A DNA stretch of 64,000 bases, taken from NCBI RefSeq assembly GCF_036507355.1, contig NZ_AP027877.1; one strand, 5' to 3'. Made by a program: the position numbers and the translations under genes. The DNA comes from Escherichia coli (lineage in GTDB: Bacteria; Pseudomonadota; Gammaproteobacteria; Enterobacterales; Enterobacteriaceae). The notes beneath the pieces were generated by a model, which was not told the DNA's origin, did not search any database, and saw only the letters and a list, made by a program, of their open reading frames with translations. Position 1 is the stretch's first letter. Every line of letters starts with the position of its first letter. This document shows positions 6,561 through 19,926 of this stretch, piece by piece.

Positions 6561-7073
6561 TCATTGTGATATTTCCATCTCTGTGATTAATACCGGATAA
6601 GCATTTAATTGCAGAGTTTGCACGAAATTATCGCAGATAACTGGCAATAACAATAACCCATCAGCCCGCTGCTGTAATACCTCCATTCGTTCTACTGATT
6701 CAACATTAACAACCAAACCAAGGGCATTTAGCGATTTAAGGATCTCCAGATGTTCACTCATCCAGCGCAGAGAAAAAGGATCATCACCAATTATAAAAAC
6801 AGGCCCCCAGCCGGTTAATAACTGGCGTTTCATTACGGAGCCAGGATGAAGTCGAGTACATATTACAGGAAATACCCCCTGTTGCGATGGTTCCGATGAT
6901 GTGGATAATTCAGAAATATTTTGCATTGTTAGTGAAGAATTAACATCCATTAATAATGGTGAAACAACCTCACTTTCCTTGCTAGTAATGGCTGCACTAA
7001 TCTGAAAGGAAAATAACAATATTATTACGTATAAACTCATTTTTAACATAACACATTCAATCCGTTTATTCAT
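6561..7073 (-). CDS. hypothetical secreted/membrane-anchored protein (orphan, low GC)
   Basis: 170-aa ORF; hydrophobic N-terminus MLKMSLYVIILLFSFQISA; AT-rich codon usage typical of horizontally acquired cargo; no family recognised. Confidence 0.4.
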   Translation of the reverse strand: MNKRIECVMLKMSLYVIILLFSFQISAAITSKESEVVSPLLMDVNSSLTMQNISELSTSSEPSQQGVFPVICTRLHPGSVMKRQLLTGWGPVFIIGDDPFSLRWMSEHLEILKSLNALGLVVNVESVERMEVLQQRADGLLLLPVICDNFVQTLQLNAYPVLITEMEISQ

Positions 7074-7139
7074 GTTATAGAATAATGATGCTATAAATCA
7101 TCATTAATGTTCAATTATTTAATCACACAATTTAAAAAA

Positions 7140-7571
7140 TCATTGACCAATGTGAATTGGCAATGTACCACTCAAGTTAAAATCACTGAATATTTTATCA
7201 ATTTCTCTTGCAGTTTCTATATATTTAACCTCTTTCGTACTTGCATTATAAATAGCCCAAGCCTCGGAATGGGATGTTTCACCAAACCTTACAAAAAAAC
7301 TTGATTTCATATTATTATATAAATTAACATCAGGAAAAGGATCTTCTCCAAAATTAGTAGTATTGAATAATGAAAGTTCGTATCGCTTAGAAAATTCTAT
7401 TGGTAGGATAGCTTCACTGCCATCAATAGCATTCATCCAGAGTTTGTTACCATTATATTCCAACAATAATCTCTGTTTTGCATGTGTCTTATCTCGTTCT
7501 TTAACGACAGCGAATACCTTTTTAACAACTTGCTGTGCGGATGGTCCTATTGTATTACCAAAAGCTGGCAA
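7140..7571 (-). CDS. hypothetical protein (orphan, low GC)
   Basis: 143-aa ORF between two H-rpt remnants; no family recognised. Confidence 0.35.
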   Translation of the reverse strand: MPAFGNTIGPSAQQVVKKVFAVVKERDKTHAKQRLLLEYNGNKLWMNAIDGSEAILPIEFSKRYELSLFNTTNFGEDPFPDVNLYNNMKSSFFVRFGETSHSEAWAIYNASTKEVKYIETAREIDKIFSDFNLSGTLPIHIGQ

Positions 7572-7871: not shown

Positions 7872-8635
7872 TCACATCTTACATCTTGCCCCTGCCATGA
7901 GTATCTTATCTTTCGTTAAAATATTAATAGCGATCTTCCGTATCCCTGAAAATAATTCTGCTGCATTTCCTCTTCTTATTTTGAAGTCATCTTTATTCAT
8001 TACCACGTCCAGATGCCAGTGCAATTTATTCTCCACTTGCCAGTGATTTCGGTTCGCTGTGGCGAACTTCTCTGCGGTTAAATCAGCAGAAATGCTATAA
8101 TATCTGACCGTCATTTCGGGATTTTTCTTTTGTTCTGCTATTATTGAGCGAAATGAGACTGCCATGCATAATTTCTTCAGCCCTTTCCATTCAAACGTAA
8201 AATCAATAAATTCATCAGAGACATGCAAACAATATGAAGACGGATTTTAATGACATAAATTGCTCCCTTGTGACGACTCTTGTCATAAGAGTGCCGGAGC
8301 GTTTTTCCATCAATTGCGATGATGTCTTTATCATCTGAAGAATGACAGTCACGCATCCAGTTAATAAAGCACTCGTAAAATTTTGCAGGACTGATACAGG
8401 ATACAACTCTGGCAATGATATCGTGAACAGGAATACCATTTTCAAAATCACCATATCACTTCAAAAAATCGAGATGTGTTTCCCCAAATCCTCTATATCT
8501 TCCCAGCCTTATGCACCAGAAATAACGGCGCAAATAGTTAACAGATAGAATATCTGGCAATTTATGTTCCACTTTCCAGGCTTGCCTGTAATCGGGGATA
8601 ATAGAAATATGTTCCATCAATTTTTTAAGTTCCAT
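7872..8635 (-). mobile_element. H-repeat-associated (ISAs1-family) transposase pseudogene (frameshifted, internally deleted)
   Basis: minus strand encodes [26 protein letters not shown] (H-rpt N-terminus, 8632 downward) and C-terminal [43 protein letters not shown] (ORF 7872..8228); about 760 bp versus about 1.1 kb for an intact copy. Confidence 0.65.
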
Positions 8636-8892: not shown

Positions 8893-10953
8893 TTAACCTC
8901 GGCTCACCGTTTTCGATTCCATCCAATAAATGACCCGGTTGGATGTGGGCTGATCGCCAACAACTTTGCCATCTGCAGAGATTAGCTTCAGCTCTTTATT
9001 AGCCTCATCACCGAAGTAAATCATACGGTAGCGAAAATAACCGCCCCAGGGTTCACGTCCACCCAGCGGACTTTGCATAAACCAGGCGCGGGAGTCGTGA
9101 ACCTGGTCATCATAGAGGGCCAGTAATTCAGCGCATGGCTGAGTACGCGTTCCCGTTCCCAGTGAATCAATAAAAAATTGTGGATAGAGTCCGTCTCCCA
9201 TAGCCTTAATTTGCTGATATTCTTTTGCTTCATCATCGCCATTAATCAGATACACCGGATATTTAGGAATGACATCCACAAGAATCTGAATGGCTTTCTC
9301 CATGACGCTGCCGTTAATATCGCGCGTCCATCCTTTATAATCGCTCTGAAATTCTCGGGCTGCCTCTCGCAACTGATACTGAGCATTGGTTGGGTCAAGG
9401 ATAGGAATGCCCTGATTACTTTCATCAAGTGTGCCATTCCCTTTCTGCTTGTTCGCCCGCTCTTTTTCAATATTTTCCATTTGTTCTTTACGCGCTTTAG
9501 CCTCTTTATCAAGTCCATCTTTATCCAGCTGTGGCGCCTTAATATAAAAAGGTTGCACAAGAAGGCTGTTATTCGCATAGCGACCGATACGCCAGGCGGT
9601 GATCCAGCCGATCTGATCGCTAATTGCGCTTTCAAGAACCTGGGCAAGTTGATAGGAGTGATAACCTTCCCTCGTATCAATCATTTCTTCTGTACCCTGC
9701 AAGGTGGTGTTCAGCAGCGTTTGTCGCCAGATGTTGAAGCGTTTTGTTAATGAATTAGCAATCGTAAATTCCTTTACACTAGAAGGACTCATAATTCGCA
9801 GAGGCGACACACCTTTTATTAATGGAGTAACAAATTTAGAATAAACAGCAAGTGGTGCTCCTGAATCAAATGCAGCAAGATACATATCATGCAGTGCTAT
9901 CTGAGAAAGAATTTCGCCTGAGTCACCACAGGACTTCCCCTGATCGCGAACGGGATAGCCACCACCGACATCAGAGTGCATCCCCGGATAGATAATTTCC
10001 TCTGCATTTAAAGGATAATTTCCGTCTGGACGACGGATTGAATCCAGCGGAAAGCACAGCCGCTGCTCATGCGCGGCAACGAAGTGGCGGCAGCATTTAA
10101 TCAGGCCGGGAAACTGCCTCTCATCAGGGAGTTGCTGAGTACTATCGGCCCATCCCATATGACCGGCAGCGCCCGGTAAAACATGCGCCGCCCCCACAGA
10201 AGCTACGGTATCCAGCAGCCCCAAAAACTCAATACTGACAGCTAACCCGGCCAGCATCACCTGTTGCTCCTGCGGGCAAGCTAACTGAGTCAACCAGTTA
10301 ACAAAAGTTCGTGCTTCCGCTGCGCCACGGGAAAATCCGTAGATAAACAGCTTTACGTTTAGCAGGCGCGGACTGGCTTGCTCTAACAGTCCCTGTAATT
10401 TTTCCAGGTAGGGGTTAATCACATTGCGACGATTCACTTCACCAGTCATAGGCCAGGGAGCGCGCATAAGAGGAATGTGCTCTTTTGCCACATTATCATC
10501 CAGTCGCTTATGGGAAGGGTCAATGGAATAGCTCAGGGCATCCACGAGGCGTAATAATGCCCAATTAATTCGATCTTCACCACCAGTAGCGAACTCCAGC
10601 CCGCTGTTGCTGTAATCCATTTCACCTATCTTGGGAAATGGTGTGCCTACACCCGGTATATAGTAGTTAAAATATCCCTGTTCTTCTGCGTTCTGATAGG
10701 TCGTATGAAACAGTTTGGCAATATTGGTTGGGTGTCCAGGAGTGTCATTATATTCATTATTATTTGTACCATCAAAAAACAGACTAATATGCAGACTTTG
10801 ATTACACGTAAAGCCAATTCTAAATCCAGCCTGTTTACTACAGTTGGTTTTGTGCTCTTCTGTTTTATTGATTTGTTTTAGGTAGTTCGCGTTTACCTGC
10901 GCTTCAGATAATATTAATCGCCCATCTTCAGGGAACACCGGGGGGCATAACAC
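8893..10953 (-). CDS. T6SS phospholipase effector, Tle-type (DUF2235-like alpha/beta hydrolase)
   Basis: 686-aa ORF; N-terminal LHISLFFDGTNNN motif and GxSxG lipase motif (IYGFSRGAAEA) characteristic of DUF2235/Tle1-like effectors; sits after a vgrG remnant and adaptor-like gene. Confidence 0.7.
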   Translation of the reverse strand: MLCPPVFPEDGRLILSEAQVNANYLKQINKTEEHKTNCSKQAGFRIGFTCNQSLHISLFFDGTNNNEYNDTPGHPTNIAKLFHTTYQNAEEQGYFNYYIPGVGTPFPKIGEMDYSNSGLEFATGGEDRINWALLRLVDALSYSIDPSHKRLDDNVAKEHIPLMRAPWPMTGEVNRRNVINPYLEKLQGLLEQASPRLLNVKLFIYGFSRGAAEARTFVNWLTQLACPQEQQVMLAGLAVSIEFLGLLDTVASVGAAHVLPGAAGHMGWADSTQQLPDERQFPGLIKCCRHFVAAHEQRLCFPLDSIRRPDGNYPLNAEEIIYPGMHSDVGGGYPVRDQGKSCGDSGEILSQIALHDMYLAAFDSGAPLAVYSKFVTPLIKGVSPLRIMSPSSVKEFTIANSLTKRFNIWRQTLLNTTLQGTEEMIDTREGYHSYQLAQVLESAISDQIGWITAWRIGRYANNSLLVQPFYIKAPQLDKDGLDKEAKARKEQMENIEKERANKQKGNGTLDESNQGIPILDPTNAQYQLREAAREFQSDYKGWTRDINGSVMEKAIQILVDVIPKYPVYLINGDDEAKEYQQIKAMGDGLYPQFFIDSLGTGTRTQPCAELLALYDDQVHDSRAWFMQSPLGGREPWGGYFRYRMIYFGDEANKELKLISADGKVVGDQPTSNRVIYWMESKTVSRG

Positions 10954-11298
10954 GGAAAAGCCAGACCACTTATTTTGCTGGACATGTTGCTGGTTCTTTT
11001 ACTTTGAGAGATTTTAATTGATGGGTATTGTTTCTACGACAATAAAGTTTTGACAAAGAAGCAAATAAAATGCATATCTTTCGATTGTCACACATTGGAA
11101 TATCGACAGAGCATTGATGATATTACGCAAAATATATTGCAGCCAAGTGAACTGACATTACGATCGAACACAAATGCAACATGATGGATACTACCATTAC
11201 ATGTCGAGCTTGATTTTCCGTTTATTTCACGATTATCTCTTGATATTAACAGCTACGGACTTTTAAACAGATAAATCTCCCCGTACATCACCACAATA

Positions 11299-12069
11299 TT
11301 ATCCTTCGAAGTCCCGCAAAGCTCCGAAATATTTCGCGTCATTGGCTCTGAAAGCAATATCAAGACAGTGGGCAAAATAGCTTTCCTGACTGAGTTCACT
11401 GACTGCTTTCTCCTTCATCAGGACTTCAGCGTCGCAGATACAGCCCATCAATCCCACCTGTACATCATCCACCCGATTCATCTCCGGGTTGTCAGTAAGC
11501 CTGCGTTCTGGTGAAAAACTTCCTGATTTCCAGTTAATCTCACCATCACGGTCTAACCAGCTCCAGAACAACGCAATATCAGTAAATGTCGCCTGCTGCT
11601 CGTTAGTCAAAACATGTGTGAACAGTAAAGGGAACACCCGATTATCATAGTAACGCAGCAATCCGGTCTGTTCTTCCCACTGAACCTGTGACAATACCTG
11701 AAGATGCCGCCCCAGCAGGTCGAATGTAAGAGGGGATATCAACAAAGTAAGACGCGGCGTATCAGCAAATGACGCCATCAGTTGTGCCAGAAATTTGCGA
11801 TGGCTACTGAGCGCAAAGTACAGGCGTAACACTACAGGGGAATACTCCATCGTCTCAGCTTCAGGCGTTCCTTCAAACAGGGCATACCAGTGAATGGCTG
11901 GCGACAGATGAAGCATATCATTTTGCAAAGGTTGGTCGGTTCCAGCCTGGTCAACAAGCACATCTATGTAATCCAAACCAGCGGCAGAACAGAATGATTC
12001 AGCTTGCTTCAGCCAGATAATATATTTGTCTTGATCGGTAGCGTGTGGCGATACTGTTATCATTGTCAT
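11299..12069 (-). CDS. putative T6SS effector adaptor/chaperone (DUF4123-like, assigned by position)
   Basis: 256-aa ORF starting 6 nt after the vgrG-remnant stop (GGGAGA spacer acts as RBS) and preceding the Tle gene; the vgrG-DUF4123-lipase order is the canonical arrangement; domain not verified. Confidence 0.45.
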   Translation of the reverse strand: MTMITVSPHATDQDKYIIWLKQAESFCSAAGLDYIDVLVDQAGTDQPLQNDMLHLSPAIHWYALFEGTPEAETMEYSPVVLRLYFALSSHRKFLAQLMASFADTPRLTLLISPLTFDLLGRHLQVLSQVQWEEQTGLLRYYDNRVFPLLFTHVLTNEQQATFTDIALFWSWLDRDGEINWKSGSFSPERRLTDNPEMNRVDDVQVGLMGCICDAEVLMKEKAVSELSQESYFAHCLDIAFRANDAKYFGALRDFEG

Positions 12070-12075
12070 TCTCCC

Positions 12076-12470
12076 TTATCCACGAGGCGCAAAAACGGCG
12101 GCGGCTTCTTGCGCCCTTTTCAGGCACTCCTTACACACCGATTTTTCTGGCGCTTCCTCACCCTCATCGTTGTTATCATTCTGATCGGACGATGCATTAC
12201 TATCATTTTGCTCAGCCGCTAAACTTTTATCATCTGCCAGCGCTTTCAGAACCGCCGGTTGCAGCGTCGGCACCGGCGTTCCCGGACTACCGCCGCTATT
12301 GAGATTGATTTTCGGCCCGACGATGTCCACGCTCCCTGAATGGATGACCACAAACGAGCCGCCCACCTTCAGGCTTATCCGGCTGCTGCTCTCCAGCACC
12401 ACATCGCCCTCCACCTTTAACCACGCCACCGCAGTCAATGGCATCACCGGTTCTGGCGGTAGGTTTATCG
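12076..12470 (-). pseudogene. vgrG 3' remnant (second copy, DUF2345-like C-terminal region only)
   Basis: translation VEGDVVLESSSRISLKVGGSFVVIHSGSVDIVGPKINLNSGGSPGTPV is near-identical to the C-terminal region of the vgrG at 15531..17237; no upstream gp27/gp5 part. Confidence 0.75.
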
Positions 12471-12652
12471 TCGATAAAGGCGAAAGAGGTGTTTCCGGCT
12501 CTTAAGAAATATTTACGCACATGCACCAGCATTACAGAAAATAAAACCTGCGATACATTTTAATCAATAAGGTTGCTTTACCAAGCTTCCATCGATATTG
12601 ATGGAAAATTCATTAGACCTAATATGAACAGAATGTTGCTCATCATCTTTAT

Positions 12653-13339
12653 CTAATATTTGATTAACAAAAAAAACGTATTTTTATCAAATTCATAATT
12701 ATCACATCCCTCTCCACTAAATGATATAGCTCTAAAATCATATTCATTACATGAGTATCTTTTCATCAAAATAGAGAGGAATGTTTCATTAATTGATTTT
12801 AATACAAACCATTTTCTCCTAACAAGTTTGTAGTTTAATGTTTTTATATGATAATTATTTAAACTGGGGAGAAATGAATGCATATCATTCAATTTTACAT
12901 CAAAATATATTTTTTTACCTGCCGTAATTTCCACCCATCGGCTCAAATTCAAATCAAGCTCAAAGGGACAAAAGCCTCCTAGATAGTCTAAGCTAATATT
13001 TCCTGATGTAATCAAGAATTCGTCATCACACAAAGCATCAAATACATCTCCATTTCCTTTTTGGAAGTTCTTTGGATAATATATTCTGGGGAGAAAATAC
13101 GATTTAGTACTACTGTTATAAAAAGTTATAGTGGCTAAAATATTTTCAGCATGTGGCTTAACCACCAATTTAACAACAACATCATTTGTTAATTCATTAC
13201 TTATATTTTCCTCTGGCGCTAAATTATGGCTAAGATAAATAATTGGTTTCCCATTGTCACTTCTTCGTTCAAAACCGAATCTGTATTTTTTTACAAAAAG
13301 ATTCTCATTATCTATTGCAATTGCAATAGATAATGGCAA
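12653..13339 (-). CDS. hypothetical protein, candidate immunity protein for the upstream HExxH protein
   Basis: 228-aa low-GC ORF immediately downstream of the vgrG-coupled gene; start uncertain (the ORF-track start corresponds to a TTG codon); no family recognised. Confidence 0.35.
   Translation of the reverse strand: MPLSIAIAIDNENLFVKKYRFGFERRSDNGKPIIYLSHNLAPEENISNELTNDVVVKLVVKPHAENILATITFYNSSTKSYFLPRIYYPKNFQKGNGDVFDALCDDEFLITSGNISLDYLGGFCPFELDLNLSRWVEITAGKKIYFDVKLNDMHSFLPSLNNYHIKTLNYKLVRRKWFVLKSINETFLSILMKRYSCNEYDFRAISFSGEGCDNYEFDKNTFFLLIKY
13305..13336. repeat. 32-bp perfect palindrome
   Basis: ccattatctattgcaattgcaatagataatgg is its own reverse complement; overlaps the first codons of the 12653..13339 ORF. 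Confidence 0.85.
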
Positions 13340-13512
13340 AAAACAAAGAAAAAAACCATCAGTACAACATAATTTAGATTATAGAAAGCCAACCTCTTCA
13401 TCTTATTTCCCCGTCAACTCATCAAAACATTTTTCTATCTCTTTTATTTTATCCTCTACTTTTTTTGCTAACATATTCTCATCTTGAGCTTCAATATCTT
13501 CATTATTTAATT

Positions 13513-14205
13513 TTATATAAAATATCTTTCAACATTATATGCATTCTCAAATAACTGATCTTTACGCAATGTAACCAGATCATTAGCCACTGAAACATGT
13601 TTCTCATAGCTAACTTCATCCTTATTACTTGTTGCGAACTTATTAATACCCGTATAATCCTGAGTCCACATACCACCTTTTTGATTGTCACCCCAATACC
13701 AAAATATATGGGACATTTCATGGCAAAGTGTACTTACATGAGAGTCTCTACCTGTAACCGACTGTTTTATACCATGTCTGTATTCAAAATGCGCTCCGAT
13801 ATTTACAATGTAAGGAGGATCAAGATGTGGACTAATAAAAGCAGCAAATTCATTGCAGTTCGTATAATCTTTATAGCTTTCGATCGTCAAACCATTTGCA
13901 ATCGTCATTATTCGTCTGATGCCATCCATTATGAATAGTCTCGCTTGCATTCGTTTCCCAGTATCTTCCCCAACCTTTCTGATTTTTATAATGTCCTCGC
14001 CTTTAAGGCCAAAAACTTTAATAAAATCTCGTTGTTGCTCCCCCTCCCATGACATAATATCATCTGCTCTTTTCAATAAAACCATTTTCTGTGCTTTACA
14101 AGCCTTACTCATCATTATTTTAAATTTATTTGTAATTTTTTGCGGTACTACACATACTTGCGACTCGGGTTGTGAAGTCCCACTAGTATTATTATTCCCT
14201 GCCAT
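13513..14205 (-). CDS. putative T6SS cargo effector with HExxH motif (Zn-metallopeptidase-like candidate)
   Basis: 231 aa from MAGNNNTSGT (ORF-track start further upstream is IS-derived read-through); RBS GGAGGGG; start codon overlaps the reconstructed vgrG stop (ATGGCAGGGAATAA); HEMSH motif near the C-terminus; low GC. Confidence 0.45.
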   Translation of the reverse strand: MAGNNNTSGTSQPESQVCVVPQKITNKFKIMMSKACKAQKMVLLKRADDIMSWEGEQQRDFIKVFGLKGEDIIKIRKVGEDTGKRMQARLFIMDGIRRIMTIANGLTIESYKDYTNCNEFAAFISPHLDPPYIVNIGAHFEYRHGIKQSVTGRDSHVSTLCHEMSHIFWYWGDNQKGGMWTQDYTGINKFATSNKDEVSYEKHVSVANDLVTLRKDQLFENAYNVERYFI

Positions 14206-14349
14206 AATGCCCCTCCGGCTCAATATAAAAAGCATCCGAAAATAACAATTGGACTTTAATTTCCTGTGCTGTATCTGTATAAAAGTGAGGTAGCCTGAGT
14301 TTAACGGACACTCCTTCCTGAAATAGAATGGCATCAGAAGGAGCTAATA

Positions 14350-14652
14350 ATGAGCAGAAAAACCCAACGTTACTCTAAAGAGTTCAAAGCCGAAGCTGTC
14401 AGAACGGTTCTTGAAAATCAACTTTCGATCAGTGAAGGCGCTTCCCGATTATCTCTTCCTGAAGGCACTTTAGGACAATGGGTTACCGCCGCCAGAAAAG
14501 GGCTCGGTACTCCTGGTTCCCGCACGGTGGCTGAACTGGAATCTGAAATTCTGCAACTGCGTAAGGCGTTAAATGAAGCTCGCCTTGAGCGAGATATATT
14601 AAAAAAAGCAACAGCGTATTTTGCACAGGAGTCGCTGAAAAATACGCGTTAA
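14350..14652 (+). CDS. IS3-family transposase OrfA (HTH)
   Basis: 100-aa ORF MSRKTQRYSKEFKAEAVRTV... with leucine-zipper-like C-terminus. Confidence 0.85.
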   Translation: MSRKTQRYSKEFKAEAVRTVLENQLSISEGASRLSLPEGTLGQWVTAARKGLGTPGSRTVAELESEILQLRKALNEARLERDILKKATAYFAQESLKNTR

Positions 14653-14687
14653 TCGAACAATGGCGACAACAATTTCCCATTGAAGCG

Positions 14688-15506
14688 ATGTGTCAGGTAT
14701 TTGGTGTATCCAGGAGCGGTTATTACAACTGGGTACAGCATGAACCCTCAGACAGAAAACAAAGTGATGAGCGGCTAAAACTGGAGATTAAGGTGGCACA
14801 TATCCGCACTCGCGAAACATATGGAACCCGGCGGCTCCAGACGGAGCTGGCAGAGAATGGCATCATCGTTGGTCGTGACCGACTGGCACGTCTTCGTAAG
14901 GAGCTAAGGCTACGCTGTAAGCAGAAACGCAAGTTCAGAGCGACTACGAACTCGAACCACAATCTGCCAGTTGCGCCAAATCTGCTGAACCAGACGTTCG
15001 CTCCTACAGCACCAAATCAGGTCTGGGTGGCGGACCTGACGTATGTTGCCACACAGGAGGGATGGTTGTACCTCGCTGGCATCAAAGATGTTTATACGTG
15101 CGAAATTGTCGGCTACGCCATGGGAGAGCGCATGACAAAAGAGCTGACAGGTAAAGCCCTGTTTATGGCGCTCAGGAGCCAGCGCCCACCTGCCGGGCTA
15201 ATCCACCACTCTGATCGAGGTTCACAGTACTGCGCATACGATTACCGGGTCATACAGGAGCAGTTTGGTCTGAAAACATCAATGTCGCGTAAAGGTAACT
15301 GTTACGACAACGCTCCGATGGAAAGCTTCTGGGGAACGCTGAAAAATGAGAGCCTGAGCCACTATCGTTTTAATAACCGGGATGAAGCCATCTCAGTAAT
15401 ACGGGAATACATTGAGATTTTCTACAATCGTCAGCGTCGTCACTCTCGTCTGGGGAATATCTCCCCGGCAGCCTTCAGGGAAAAATATCATCAGATGGCT
15501 GCTTAA
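14688..15506 (+). CDS. IS3-family transposase OrfB (DDE integrase core; probably made as an OrfAB frameshift fusion)
   Basis: 272-aa ORF with DLTYV...HHSDRGSQY...SRKGNCYDNAPMESFW DDE signature. Confidence 0.85.
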   Translation: MCQVFGVSRSGYYNWVQHEPSDRKQSDERLKLEIKVAHIRTRETYGTRRLQTELAENGIIVGRDRLARLRKELRLRCKQKRKFRATTNSNHNLPVAPNLLNQTFAPTAPNQVWVADLTYVATQEGWLYLAGIKDVYTCEIVGYAMGERMTKELTGKALFMALRSQRPPAGLIHHSDRGSQYCAYDYRVIQEQFGLKTSMSRKGNCYDNAPMESFWGTLKNESLSHYRFNNRDEAISVIREYIEIFYNRQRRHSRLGNISPAAFREKYHQMAA

Positions 15507-15530
15507 AAAAAGAATAAATGGTAGTGTCCG

Positions 15531-17237
15531 CTATTGCCAGTACACCTCAAATATTTCTGTATATCCCTCTCTGTCTGTTTCACCACGCGTCTGTGTGCCA
15601 TCCTCAAAAAAGGCAATATACTGCGTCTCTGAATACGGTATCCCGTCATCGTCCGTAAAATGGAACTGGAGGGTATATTTTTCAGGATCATCTTCATCGT
15701 CACCGCCATCACCTCCTCCGTCACTCCCTGCGGGATTGCCACTATCCTCTCCGGAGTCATCACTGCCATCATCACTGCTCTCATCCTCCGGAGCCTCCAG
15801 CACCGCCGGCTGCATCGTCCCCACCGGTGTCCCCGCACTGCCCCCACCGTTCAGGTTTATCTTCGGCCCGGCAATATCCACTCCGCCCGGCTGAATGACG
15901 ATAAACGAGCCACCCACCTTCAGGCTTATCCGGCTGCTGCTCTCCAGCACGATATCCCCGTCCACTTTTATCCCCAGCGCGCCACTCACCTTCTCCGCCA
16001 GGTCCCCCTTCACCACCAGGCTGTGTTTCCCCTCCACCAGACTGATATGGTTCCCCGTCGTCTTATGCTCCTGCTTCCCTTCCACCGTCACTTTACGGTC
16101 GTTTCTGACGTACAGACCGTCATCGTGACTCACGCTCACCGTCCGGTCATTCGTCACCTTCAGAGTCTGGTCATTACGTACCGTGATACGCCGGTCGTTC
16201 GCCACCGTGATACTCTGGTCGTGGCCCCCCTCTTTTTTTGTACCGACCTGAACCGTCTGACCCTTCACCACCGTTATCTTCTGGTCGTTACCGATGGTTT
16301 CCGTATGGTCATGTTTTACATCCGTTGTCCGGTCGTTGAGCACCTCCGTATCCATGTTCTTCTGCGCATGGATATACACCTGCTCATTACTGGTGGCGTC
16401 TTCAAACCGCAGCTCGTTAAATCCGCTTCCTTTATAGGTTTTTGACCGTATCGTCATCTGCGTCTTCGTTCCCGGCAGGTCGCCCGGGGAGCGGTTGTCC
16501 TCATGGTACGTCCGCCCCATGATTATCGGCTGGTCCGGGTCTCCGTTCAGAAAATCAACAATCACCTCCTGGCCCACCCGCGGTATCGCCAGATTACCGA
16601 ACCCCGGCCCCGCCCACGCCTGCGATACCCGCACCCAGCATGAACTCGCCTCCGTCATCCCGTGATAACGGTCCCAGTGGAACTTCACCCGTACCCGGCC
16701 ATGTTCATCGCAGAAGATTTCCTCTCCCGCAGGCCCGGTGACAATGGCACTCTGCGGCCCGTCCACCTTCGGTTTGCTTTGCAGCCGTGGACGCCACGTC
16801 CGGTCCGCCGGTATCACCTCTAACTGATTTCCCAGCGTGGTTCCTCTCCCTTGGCTGCCGTGCAGCGCCTGCGGCTGGCTTCCTGACAGTATGCTCTGTA
16901 CCACCTGCCATTCACGGTTCAGCATCTTCTGCGGATGCCCCGTCAGCGTAAACCGCGTTCCCGGCCACAGCCTCGGCGAATTACTCTGCCCTGTGGCCTT
17001 TTCCGCATCACTGCGCAGGCTCTCCATCTGGTACAGCGTGAAATCCTTGCCGTGCTGCTCATCCTTGAACCTTCCCGGATAATCAAATATTTCATACTGC
17101 GCCAGCTGTCCGTTCAGGTTCTCACCCTGCTGCTCATACATCCCCGGCCAGTCCGGCACCTTAAACGTGTAATCCTGGCTCTGCACCGACGACGGGCGGA
17201 CATGCGCCTCATACGCTACCGCCCGGGTTTCCGGCAT
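15531..17237 (-). pseudogene. vgrG: vgrG (T6SS spike) lacking the N-terminal ~220 aa and interrupted 33 codons before its stop by IS600-like copy 1
   Basis: 568-aa ORF with gp5-like OB-fold motif (GPAGEEIFCDEHGRVRVKFHWDRY) only ~165 aa from its start, repeated VxxNDR beta-helix segments, DUF2345-like region, acidic Gly/Asp linker and a short C-terminal domain; the last residues EVYWQ are encoded by the IS terminus. Confidence 0.8.
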
Positions 17238-17294
17238 CCGCCATCTCCCTCATGAAAGCGTAACTCCTTACTGACACTCATTTTTTACACGTAC

Positions 17295-17328
17295 AAAAAC
17301 AACATCCTGCACGAAGGCAGGATGTTGT
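17295..17328 (-). terminator. rho-independent terminator downstream of hcp
   Basis: hairpin caacatcctgc-acgaag-gcaggatgttg followed on the minus strand by a T-rich tract. Confidence 0.55.
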
Positions 17329-17338
17329 TGACTCAGAT

Positions 17339-17857
17339 TTATGCTTCCAGCGGTGCACGCCAGTCATCGGCACCAGAAGTACCGGATTTGATGTGCTCCC
17401 ACTCAACCTTACGGTATGCCAGTGATACTGCGAGCAATTGCGTAAACTCACGCTGTGCAGGGTCCTGGCAGTGCGGCATGTGCAGGTTCATGTCCACAAT
17501 CGTCGCGTCAGTAAGACGTGTGGTGAAGTAGTGCTCCTGCTTGCCTTCAACTGAAGTACGCCACCAGTGCAGCTCCACTTTCGGCAGCATTTCACCGGAG
17601 GCCAGCGCGTTGTACAGCAGCGGAACGGCTTTGTTCAGCGCCACGGTGAAAATGAACGGTTTGTGCGCGCGCTGCCCGGAAGGTTGACCAGACTGTGGAT
17701 CGGTTGGAACAGTAACGTTATGCAGAAACTCCTGCACCAGCATTTCATCTTCGTGTCCCTGCACGTAGATATTGCCGACAGAATCTGCGGTGAAAGCACC
17801 GGCAGTGATGTTCCCCTGGGTCTGACCTGTAATTGAAATGTAACATGGGGTTGGCAT
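17339..17857 (-). CDS. hcp: Hcp (T6SS inner tube protein, TssD)
   Basis: 172-aa ORF MPTPCYISITGQTQGNITAGAFTADSVGNIYVQGHEDE..., typical Hcp1-family sequence and size. Confidence 0.9.
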   Translation of the reverse strand: MPTPCYISITGQTQGNITAGAFTADSVGNIYVQGHEDEMLVQEFLHNVTVPTDPQSGQPSGQRAHKPFIFTVALNKAVPLLYNALASGEMLPKVELHWWRTSVEGKQEHYFTTRLTDATIVDMNLHMPHCQDPAQREFTQLLAVSLAYRKVEWEHIKSGTSGADDWRAPLEA

Positions 17858-18559
17858 TTATGAACTCCTTGTGAAATTATCAACTGCTGTTTTACGAACA
17901 ACCCGTCGTTAATCCCCGACGGGTTAGAGTGTGATGCGGCTCACATCAGGAACCACACCCTTTTCTTTATTCGAGTTACAGGCACACGTAATTAGCACCT
18001 ACTGAAAAACTCTTTTATGGTGTTTAAATATATTTTTAGTCAATTTCAGAACACGGTCACATAAGCTAAAAATATATCAACTTCAACAGCAGAATTATCC
18101 ATAACGTATCTTCCCCCCCATAAAAATCCACAGCCGCGTCAAAAACAAATTATTACGACACTTACTCCGCCATCGTTCCAGCACGCAATTAAGATATTCC
18201 TTAAAGGAATTCCTTATGATGTATTGCCAGCAATTAATTAATTGATAAAACCATACATAAAACTTATTAATCAATTTAATAAATGCATATAAATCAATAT
18301 ATTATTGTATTTGATTGACCGTAAAATCATATTCATCAAGTCTATAAATACCAAAATCTATTTCACTATAATATATTAGCAAGGAAGAATGCATCTCTTT
18401 CTAAAATATAAATAGTTCTTTTAATATTTTATTTCATGAGTAGAATACTGATCACAACAGAAGGAAGGTTACATTATCTAACTGCCACTGAAACGGTATC
18501 TTCGGTATTTTTATGCAGTACGAAAATGCTGTGCTCATGGTCTGAACGGGAACATTTTT
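17858..18559. promoter_or_regulatory. AT-rich divergent intergenic region between hcp and the tssB stub (probable T6SS promoter region)
   Basis: about 700 bp of very AT-rich non-coding sequence between divergently oriented hcp and tssB starts. Confidence 0.35.
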
Positions 18560-18718
18560 ATGAGCAAAATGAACAACAATGGCGGCAGTGTCGCGCCGAA
18601 AGAAAGAATCAGCGTTCGGTATACACCAAAAGTTGATGGGGTGGCTGCTGATATCGAATTGCCGCTGAATTTATTGATCACCGGCAATCTGAAAGGGAAA
18701 CCAGATAACACGCCGTGA
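18560..18718 (+). pseudogene. tssB: tssB (T6SS sheath small subunit) 5' stub, 52 codons, truncated by an IS3-family element
   Basis: MSKMNNNGGSVAPKERISVRYTPKVDGVAADIELPLNLLITGNLKGKPDNTP matches the conserved TssB/VipA N-terminus; the stop codon TGA is the first three bases of the IS inverted repeat. Confidence 0.65.
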
Positions 18719-18772
18719 ATCGCCACGGGTTTAACAGACACCTCAGAGTCATTTAAGATGGCTTAAAGAGAG

Positions 18773-19057
18773 GTGCCCATGAGCGGTAAGCGTTATCCCG
18801 AAGAGTTTAAAATTGAAGCAGTCAAACAGGTTGTTGATCGCGGTTATTCTGTTGCCAGCGTTGCAACACGTCTCGATATCACCACCCACAGCCTTTACGC
18901 CTGGATAAAGAAGTACGGTCCGGATTCTTCCGCTAATAAAGAACAGTCAGATGCTCAGGCCGAGATCCGCCGTCTCCAGAAAGAGCTGAAGCGGGTTACC
19001 GACGAACGGGACATATTAAAAAAAGCCGCGGCGTACTTCGCAAAGCTGTCCGACTGA
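18773..19057 (+). CDS. IS3-family transposase OrfA
   Basis: 94-aa ORF MPMSGKRYPEEFKIEAVKQVVDRGYSVASVATRL... (HTH plus leucine zipper). Confidence 0.85.
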   Translation: MPMSGKRYPEEFKIEAVKQVVDRGYSVASVATRLDITTHSLYAWIKKYGPDSSANKEQSDAQAEIRRLQKELKRVTDERDILKKAAAYFAKLSD

Positions 19058-19113
19058 GGTACGCCTTTATCCGTGACAACACCTGTTGCTGGCCTGTTCG
19101 CCTGCTCTGTCGG

Positions 19114-19926
19114 GTGCTGGATGTTCATCCCAGTGGTTTTTACGCCTGGCTTCAGCAGCCGCATTCACAACGCCATCAGGCAGACCTGAGGCTGACAGGG
19201 CAGATTAAACAGTTCTGGCTGGAATCGGGATGCGTCTATGGTTATCGCAAAATCCATCTGGATCTGCGGGACAGCGGGCAACAGTGCGGAGTGAACAGAG
19301 TCTGGCGACTGATGAAACGTGTCGGGATAAAGGCTCAGGTCGGATACCGGAGCCCGCGGGCACGTAAAGGCGAGGCCAGTATCGTGTCGCCCAACAGGCT
19401 CCAGCGACAGTTCAATCCGGATGCTCCGGATAAGCGTTGGGTAACGGACATAACCTACATCAGGACCCACGAAGGCTGGCTGTATCTTGCCGTGGTTGTT
19501 GATCTGTTCTCACGCAAAATTATCGGCTGGTCCATGCAATCCCGGATGACAAAGGACATTGTCCTGAACGCACTGCTGATGGCTGTATGGCGCCGTAATC
19601 CCCAAAAACAGGTGCTGGTTCATTCGGATCAGGGCAGTCAGTACACAAGCCATGAGTGGCAGTCGTTCCTGAAATCACACGGCCTGGATGGCAGCATGAG
19701 CCGTCGCGGTAACTGCCATGATAATGCGGTTGCAGAAAGCTTTTTCCAGTTGTTGAAACGCGAACGGATAAAGAAAAAGATCTACGGAACGCGGGAAGAA
19801 GCCCGCAGCGATATTTTTGATTACATCGAAATGTTTTATAACAGTAAGCGTCGGCATGGTTCCAGCGATCAGATGTCACCGACAGAATATGAAAACCAGT
19901 ATTATCAACGGCTCGGAAGTGTCTAG
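19114..19926 (+). CDS. IS3-family transposase OrfB (DDE)
   Basis: 270-aa ORF with DITYIRTHEGWLYLAVVVDLFSRK...HSDQGSQYTS...SRRGNCHDNAVAESFF DDE signature. Confidence 0.85.
   Translation: MLDVHPSGFYAWLQQPHSQRHQADLRLTGQIKQFWLESGCVYGYRKIHLDLRDSGQQCGVNRVWRLMKRVGIKAQVGYRSPRARKGEASIVSPNRLQRQFNPDAPDKRWVTDITYIRTHEGWLYLAVVVDLFSRKIIGWSMQSRMTKDIVLNALLMAVWRRNPQKQVLVHSDQGSQYTSHEWQSFLKSHGLDGSMSRRGNCHDNAVAESFFQLLKRERIKKKIYGTREEARSDIFDYIEMFYNSKRRHGSSDQMSPTEYENQYYQRLGSV

Follow-up and report, generated by a model that had tools for sequence, protein, structure and literature searches.

The window analysed here is a stretch of 64,000 nucleotides (nt) from Escherichia coli (RefSeq assembly GCF_036507355.1, contig NZ_AP027877.1). 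The subject of this report is an open reading frame (ORF) at 12653..13339 on its minus strand, which an initial annotation had proposed to be a candidate immunity gene of unknown family, placed directly behind the gene for a putative HExxH effector. According to the ORF list of the window it comprises 228 codons with a TTG start, its GC content is 29.0% compared with 50.6% across the window, and the HExxH ORF (13513..14334, minus strand) lies upstream of it, so that size, composition, strand and order had all been described correctly. The ORF exists, but it is only the middle fragment of a longer gene at 12564..13401. We are fairly confident that it is what remains of a gene whose product was a disulfide-containing immunity protein exported to the periplasm by the Sec pathway, the partner of the adjacent M35 (aspzincin-type) zinc peptidase toxin that is delivered by VgrG of a type VI secretion system (T6SS). 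The features at the locus are:

12564..13401, minus strand: full immunity gene, in the window a pseudogene with two 1-nt deletions; 279 codons when intact, with ATG at 13401 and TGA at 12564
12653..13339, minus strand: reported ORF, the central gene fragment without the signal peptide and the conserved C-terminal 38 amino acids (aa)
13316..13401, minus strand: region coding for the Sec signal peptide, MKRLAFYNLNYVVLMVFFLCFLPLSIAIA followed by IDNEN, cut off by frameshift 1
13349..13355, minus strand: frameshift 1, at the 5' end of the immunity gene; T7 in the window, T8 in relatives
12669..12676, minus strand: frameshift 2, at the 3' end of the immunity gene; T8 in the window, T9 in A30 (279-aa form)
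13403..14205, minus strand: M35 (aspzincin)-like T6SS effector gene with a HEMSH motif; 267 aa when intact
13519..13522, minus strand: frameshift in the M35 gene; T4 in the window, T5 in relatives
13306..13335, minus strand: perfect palindrome with a 13-bp stem and a 4-nt loop, followed by a T-run; terminator-like

Only 12 of 5,426 complete E. coli genomes matched the region 12500..14400 over most of its length, at 99.4–99.7% identity. The gene order in these genomes is hcp, vgrG, "M35 family metalloendopeptidase", "hypothetical protein", a vgrG fragment, tla1, tli1a and tle1. The frameshifts were found by base-by-base alignment with E. coli 23CRST027 and A30, which revealed three 1-nt differences between the window and its relatives, each inside a run of T. 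When T8 is restored at 13349..13355, the ATG at 13401 opens 29 codons encoding MKRLAFYNLNYVVLMVFFLCFLPLSIAIA, which are then joined to IDNENLF..., and when T9 is restored at 12669..12676 the protein reaches 279 aa with the C-terminus ...FFFVNQILDKDDEQHSVHIRSNEFSINIDGSLVKQPY. Frameshift 2 deletes the segment ...FVNQILDKDDEQHSVHIRSNEFSINIDGSLVKQPY, the home of a conserved IRSN motif. With two 1-nt deletions relative to the 279-aa form, the immunity gene has no intact reading frame in the window. Homologues from Salmonella and metagenomes that are 48–55% identical align with the whole 279-aa form from end to end, and this form is taken to be the ancestral one because all more distant homologues align to its full length.

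Several traits that had been noted for the ORF are thereby explained. The apparent lack of a signal peptide is an artefact of frameshift 1, which places MKRLAFYNLNYVVLMVFFLCFLPLSIAIA with its AxA cleavage site in another frame; in the window copy this predicted export signal is out of frame with the 228-aa ORF, and in intact alleles it is present. The uncertainty about the start has the same origin, since the gene starts with the ATG at 13401, although the first in-frame start of the ORF, a TTG, does fall within the perfect palindrome, as had been observed. The position immediately behind the effector gene holds for intact alleles, where the M35 stop codon and the ATG of the immunity gene are separated by 1 nt (TAA-G-ATG), but not for the window, where the gap measures 173 nt because the M35 gene has lost one T and stops early.

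In the protein collection, a 249-aa form (T8) was found on 110 contigs and the 279-aa form (T9) on 93, together with an N-terminally shifted 258-aa form on 11 contigs. The poly-T tracts at 12669..12676 and 13349..13355 are thus polymorphic among natural E. coli, and about half of the carriers encode a protein without the conserved C-terminal hairpin. This polymorphism could reflect slipped-strand switching or widespread decay.

The palindrome overlaps the codons of the signal-peptide cleavage site (LSIAIAIDN). Its significance is unproven, since 0.9 terminator-like sites would be expected by chance where one was found. Close E. coli relatives have an identical hairpin, but the protein sequence of distant homologues shows no trace of it. 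It may act as an attenuator located between the two genes of the pair, or it may have arisen by chance.

A single-sequence word-indexed search yielded only four clusters related to the immunity protein. A profile of five sequences, including a 29%-identical paralogue from locus L005, was searched in a library of 1.84 billion proteins. It recovered 100 representatives at E<=1e-3, of which 73 reached E<=1e-10; most are 270–310 aa long. A hydrophobic N-terminal segment was recognised in 45 of 55 full-length members by simple hydrophobicity and an AxA heuristic, and in the members read this segment ends with an AxA-type cleavage motif; no canonical lipobox occurs among the family sequences read. 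Four cysteines are kept in 85–92% of members, a pattern that fits two putative periplasmic disulfides. The sole column of the family alignment with at least 70% K/R is R262 (85%), which belongs to the conserved I-R-S-N motif and lies within the 38 residues lost to frameshift 2.

None of 65 members matched any Pfam family, including BsuPI (PF12690), there was no NCBIfam match for the immunity protein, and the family profile built from the 65-member alignment found no PDB chain at E<=10. The family is therefore unknown, as had been supposed, in the sense that it has no counterpart among the sequence models of Pfam, NCBIfam or the PDB, but it is real and sizeable: an uncatalogued immunity family of about 70–100 sequence clusters, which annotation pipelines label as "hypothetical". 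Its relatives in the AlphaFold database (AFDB), from Escherichia, Salmonella, Citrobacter, Buttiauxella and Superficieibacter as well as Enterobacter, Phytobacter, Trabulsiella and Cronobacter, are all named "uncharacterized protein".

These family traits bear on the possibility that the window contains an intact short gene whose cytoplasmic 228-aa immunity protein is translated from the TTG. The exact 228-aa product does appear as a hypothetical protein in the annotation of a single E. coli genome (VEE46_34590, one contig), which is its only deposit. However, such a protein would be without the signal peptide carried by the large majority of its full-length relatives and without the C-terminal 38 residues, in which the IRSN...G motif and the best-conserved basic residue are found. 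In addition, its TTG is buried in a strong hairpin and the surrounding T6SS is dismantled. We therefore regard an intact short gene as very improbable.

A few deviating sequences were encountered. P0067 (338 aa) and AFDB A0A447XXP0 (348 aa) each consist of a VgrG or peptidase fragment running into the beta-sandwich of the immunity family; these chimeras are probably recombination or frameshift products and not true fusions. Distant short homologues of about 180 aa, e.g. P0088, have the beta-sandwich only. Ahead of P0088 (181 aa; locus L010, 2..1852) lie a lipoprotein gene and the gene for an Rhs-type toxin whose C-terminal domain is lytic-transglycosylase-like. P0088 was left out of the synteny analysis described below because its neighbour is this Rhs-type lytic-transglycosylase toxin and not an M35 gene. 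The BsuPI/propeptide-like sandwich may thus serve for immunity or inhibition with toxins other than the M35 type as well. Pfam, NCBIfam and PDB searches with the single immunity protein likewise gave no usable match; a phmmer match of 42 residues to an iota-carbonic anhydrase (E 2e-4) did not recur with the profile and was treated as spurious.

The upstream gene encodes an M35-like peptidase, and M35 family metalloendopeptidase is also the name given to it by the NCBI annotation pipeline. Its motif HEMSH is followed by GGMWTQD, where paralogues have HELSH followed by GGMGTxD, and the aligned Asp is invariant. As judged from the alignment, the HExxH motif together with the invariant Asp in GGMGTxD/GGMWTQD is the aspzincin signature. 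The first effector sequence matched Pfam Aspzincin_M35 (PF14521) with an i-Evalue of 0.0022, and three of six members did so at E<=0.1. When a profile of six effectors was searched against the PDB at E<=10, the only matches were AsaP1 (E 1e-4) and the peptidyl-Lys metalloendopeptidase GfMEP (E 2e-4), and no VgrG2b chain appeared. These matches span only an active-site segment of about 45 residues, in AsaP1 residues 265–310 around HExxH. The 1-nt loss at 13519..13522 stops the M35 gene of the window at 13513, whereby a C-terminal tail of 37 aa is gone and the catalytic core is kept. This tail is specific to the subfamily, and paralogues end at the stop of the window ORF. The effectors have neither a signal peptide nor a prodomain of their own, and typically the start of the effector gene overlaps with the end of a vgrG that is extended C-terminally.

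Co-occurrence of the two genes, which had been suggested as a check, was assessed for 14 diverse full-length members of the immunity family by exact-protein look-ups. The sample included the window allele, a Salmonella Moero contig, Superficieibacter electus, two E. coli PAR modules and several metagenome contigs. Thirteen of the 14 lie directly downstream of an M35-like gene (profile E 1e-9 to 1e-118) or of its 3' stub, the stub cases being the second pair of L005 and L008. The exception, a member on a 1.8-kb contig (L016), does not follow an M35-like gene. Across nine pairs, the pairwise identities of effectors and partners correlate (Pearson 0.93, Spearman 0.75; 36 comparisons, which are not independent), so that effector and immunity genes diverge as a unit. 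The suggested co-occurrence check thus comes out in favour of the pairing.

Tandem or repeated M35/immunity modules were seen in related islands (L005 3406..6084, L017 1119..2822, L014 of E. coli PAR 13274..19430 and L008 2638..3595). The same set of islands also holds immunity genes that follow an M35 stub of only 25–100 aa, which is the pattern of orphan immunity genes accumulating via effector replacement.

Experimental support comes from a paralogous pair. M35PAR (AKO63_2955) from E. coli PAR is reported to be lethal to E. coli if produced from pET22b, an effect that is alleviated when AKO63_2956 is co-expressed (PMC10673891). Neutralisation and binding of a cognate effector are published for this paralogue only (PMC10673891, Fig. 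3e,f). We placed the AKO63_2955/2956 locus in NZ_CP012379.1, within the metV T6SS-2 island (L014): the forward primer of that study fits the start of a 262-aa HELTH protein exactly, and its reverse primer for 2956 corresponds to LYSSMQ*, with which the 308-aa protein downstream ends. AKO63_2955 is 27.5% identical to the effector of the window (E 4e-28), and AKO63_2956 is 31% identical to the immunity protein over 213 aa (blastp E 1e-29, phmmer E 1.5e-30). The two loci share the order of vgrG, M35 gene and immunity gene, and AKO63_2956 also has a hydrophobic N-terminal leader. They differ in that the paralogous pair sits at the metV T6SS locus and the pair studied here at aspV, in the length of the immunity protein (308 versus 279 aa) and in the two frameshifts of the window copy. 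Family, fold and mechanism of AKO63_2956 are not described in that study (PMC10673891). The immunity protein is thus homologous to one that has been tested experimentally and is as yet unnamed and uncharacterised. Taken at the level of the family, the assignment as cognate immunity gene is well supported by the synteny, the correlated divergence and the rescue by the paralogue.

The suggestion that effector and immunity protein act in the cytoplasm, in contrast, most probably does not hold. Intact alleles and most relatives carry a predicted export signal, and export of the immunity protein to the periplasm implies a peptidase acting there. In agreement with this, a bovine E. coli isolate is reported to have an M35-like T6SS peptidase, related to the effectors considered here, that is toxic only if sent to the periplasm (PMC7904677). 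The expected site of toxin action is thereby moved from the cytoplasm to the periplasm, which narrows the search for substrates of the widespread, uncharacterised M35 peptidases of enterobacterial T6SSs. In intact strains, the toxin, which has no signal peptide, would travel on the VgrG spike and so reach the periplasm of neighbouring cells, and in kin cells the immunity protein, itself expected in the periplasm, would neutralise the incoming toxin by tight binding, as the experiment with the paralogue leads us to infer.

A T6SS periplasmic effector-immunity pair with a metallopeptidase toxin is a known kind of system. The C-terminal domain of VgrG2b is a periplasmic toxin whose immunity protein PA0261 requires its signal peptide and DsbA and neutralises by binding (PMC6899460). 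This pair and Tpe1/Tpi1 (PMC6899460) resemble the system described here in that a T6SS HExxH peptidase toxic in the periplasm is followed downstream by an exported immunity protein with disulfides. However, PA0261-type proteins are described as products of small ORFs and as lipoproteins in Enterobacteriaceae (PMC6899460), a description that sets them apart from the present family with its 270–310 aa. With these differences in size and in the lipobox, and with no VgrG2b chain retrieved by the effector profile at E<=10 where AsaP1 and GfMEP were, membership in the Tpi1/PA0261 family is not demonstrable.

To obtain a structural model, the alignment of 65 sequences was used, as a model from the five-sequence alignment was unusable (predicted local distance difference test, pLDDT, of 44). 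The resulting AlphaFold2 model of the mature immunity protein has a pLDDT of 86.3 and a predicted template modelling score of 0.82. It shows a beta-sandwich (residues ~10–165), a helical module (167–227) and a terminal beta-hairpin. The top ranks of a Foldseek search with this model were four chains of AsaP1 (E 2e-6 to 3e-5), the M35 peptidase of Aeromonas salmonicida. Mature-only M35 structures such as 1g12 are absent from the fold-match lists of the model. Because it is the beta-sandwich that was matched, because mature-only structures are absent and because BsuPI was matched as well, the AsaP1 match appears to lie in the propeptide half of the zymogen, and the predicted beta-sandwich seems superposable on the AsaP1 propeptide. 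A 46-aa query for full-length AsaP1-like sequences found a 72-aa fragment only.

In AsaP1 the propeptide reportedly blocks the active-site cleft and is said to place a Lys in the S1' pocket. In the mechanism proposed here, the best-supported one, the N-terminal beta-sandwich of the immunity protein, with its predicted likeness to the AsaP1 propeptide, would cap the active-site cleft of the toxin as a prodomain supplied in trans, and a basic side chain may be inserted into the S1' pocket. A counterpart of the inhibitory Lys is not established in the immunity family, and R262 of the IRSN motif is, speculatively, a candidate for the basic plug. Compared with the AsaP1 propeptide (PDB 2x3a/b/c) and BsuPI of B. 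subtilis (3isy), the immunity protein is a separate polypeptide with its own signal peptide and has a helical module, a C-terminal hairpin and two putative disulfides as extras.

These likenesses lead us to suggest, tentatively and as something close to an even possibility, that the immunity family descends from the prodomain of an M35 zymogen, i.e. that an ancestral pro-M35 peptidase was split into a prodomain-less toxin carried by VgrG and a Sec-exported prodomain that later gained a helical module and disulfides and acts as its antidote, a "split zymogen". Stand-alone propeptide-like inhibitors exist, such as the streptococcal Spi for SpeB and the MEROPS I9 and I29 inhibitors. These, too, are free proteins that are related to the prodomain of a protease and inhibit its mature form in trans, but they act on cysteine or serine proteases and outside toxin-immunity modules. 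We know of no equivalent for M35 metallopeptidases or among T6SS immunity proteins, and a full-text literature search for T6SS immunity proteins of the propeptide type returned nothing relevant. The predicted prodomain-like fold and the reading as a split zymogen therefore appear to be new. If true, this would be the first propeptide-derived immunity protein in a T6SS, and for M35 metallopeptidases it would be the first inhibitor of the propeptide-like kind that stands alone. Supplying a prodomain in trans is a concrete and testable mechanism of inhibition. If it holds, it would point to one route by which toxin-immunity pairs originate and would provide a natural protein inhibitor scaffold for Lys-specific aspzincins.

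True M35 propeptides double as intramolecular chaperones, and the propeptide of AsaP1 reportedly has a chaperone function as well. The partner gene might accordingly encode not an immunity factor but a trans-acting folding chaperone or activator of the M35 effector. The AsaP1 zymogen as the top structural match and the absence of a prodomain from the effector would both suit such a role. However, nearly every family member carries an export signal whereas the effectors lack one and occupy the VgrG cargo position, so that the two proteins would reside in different compartments within the producer. Furthermore, copies beside mere M35 stubs (L005, L008) are retained, as is typical of immunity genes, and the paralogue AKO63_2956 relieves toxicity and is not required for it. 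A chaperone or activator is thus improbable, and a periplasmic immunity protein is the preferred explanation.

The following points weigh against the interpretation as a periplasmic immunity protein derived from a prodomain and encoded by a decayed gene. The published rescue is for a paralogue only, which is 31% identical to the protein of the window. If the three homopolymer frameshifts are assembly errors, as they may be, the immunity gene of the window is intact save for the truncation common to about half of the carriers. Sequencing error is possible for the window genome because all three differences sit in homopolymers; against this, tract-length variants are common in other genomes and the 228-aa product has been deposited once. 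The propeptide link depends on a predicted structure and on fold comparison, there being no sequence-level similarity of the immunity family to AsaP1, to BsuPI (PF12690) or to any PDB chain, and beta-sandwich folds can converge. The likeness to M35 propeptides might accordingly be convergent or generic, that of an Ig-like or BsuPI-like beta-sandwich, with immunity conferred via a different surface and without prodomain ancestry. We consider this rather unlikely.

The surroundings of the pair were judged against E. coli 23CRST027 and contain the following remains of a T6SS island:

14285..15548, plus strand: IS600 (insertion sequence of the IS3 family), between the vgrG 3' end and the M35 gene
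15549..17212, minus strand: vgrG remnant, with its 5' 737 nt deleted and its 3' end cut by IS600, relative to L001
17339..17857, minus strand: hcp, apparently intact, the last T6SS gene before the loss of the core cluster
12076..12447, minus strand: C-terminal vgrG fragment heading the next cargo module
11299..12069: tla1, next cargo module
8893..10953: tle1, next cargo module

Homology to the T6SS-1 island ends at 18716, a point a short way upstream of hcp that lies in or close to tssB, beside an IS3-family transposase gene that starts at about 18773 (window 17974..18773 and beyond). The tssB-tssM core cluster is absent, and what follows is the E. coli chromosome around rrnH, mltD and yafC; the flanks of the island are the fadE-yafV and rrnH-mltD regions. 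The presence of IS600 had raised the possibility of a Shigella origin, which was rejected on account of these E. coli flanks and of the deposit of the exact ORF product from an E. coli genome. With the core deleted, vgrG truncated and disrupted by an insertion sequence, the toxin frameshifted and the immunity protein without export signal and C-terminus, the system is dead in the window. In the absence of a firing apparatus there is no selection for immunity, which fits the decay of the gene, and protection by the window copy, a doubly frameshifted remnant in an island without machinery, is unlikely. Locally, the picture is that of a T6SS cargo island caught mid-decay.

The next cargo module has been affected as well. 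A 511-nt deletion with its junction at 10969..10996 takes most of tli1a, the immunity gene for Tle1, and the 28-nt overlap at this junction suggests repeat-mediated loss. The 686-aa ORF of the Tle1 phospholipase and the chaperone gene tla1 stay open, leaving an effector without its antidote where the T6SS core has been lost. At the distal edge of the island (7872..8635 and 6561..7571; 35–40% GC), beside yafV and fadE, lie fragmented transposase ORFs of the ISAs1 family, a 170-aa homologue of an "integrating conjugative element protein" and a 143-aa hypothetical ORF.
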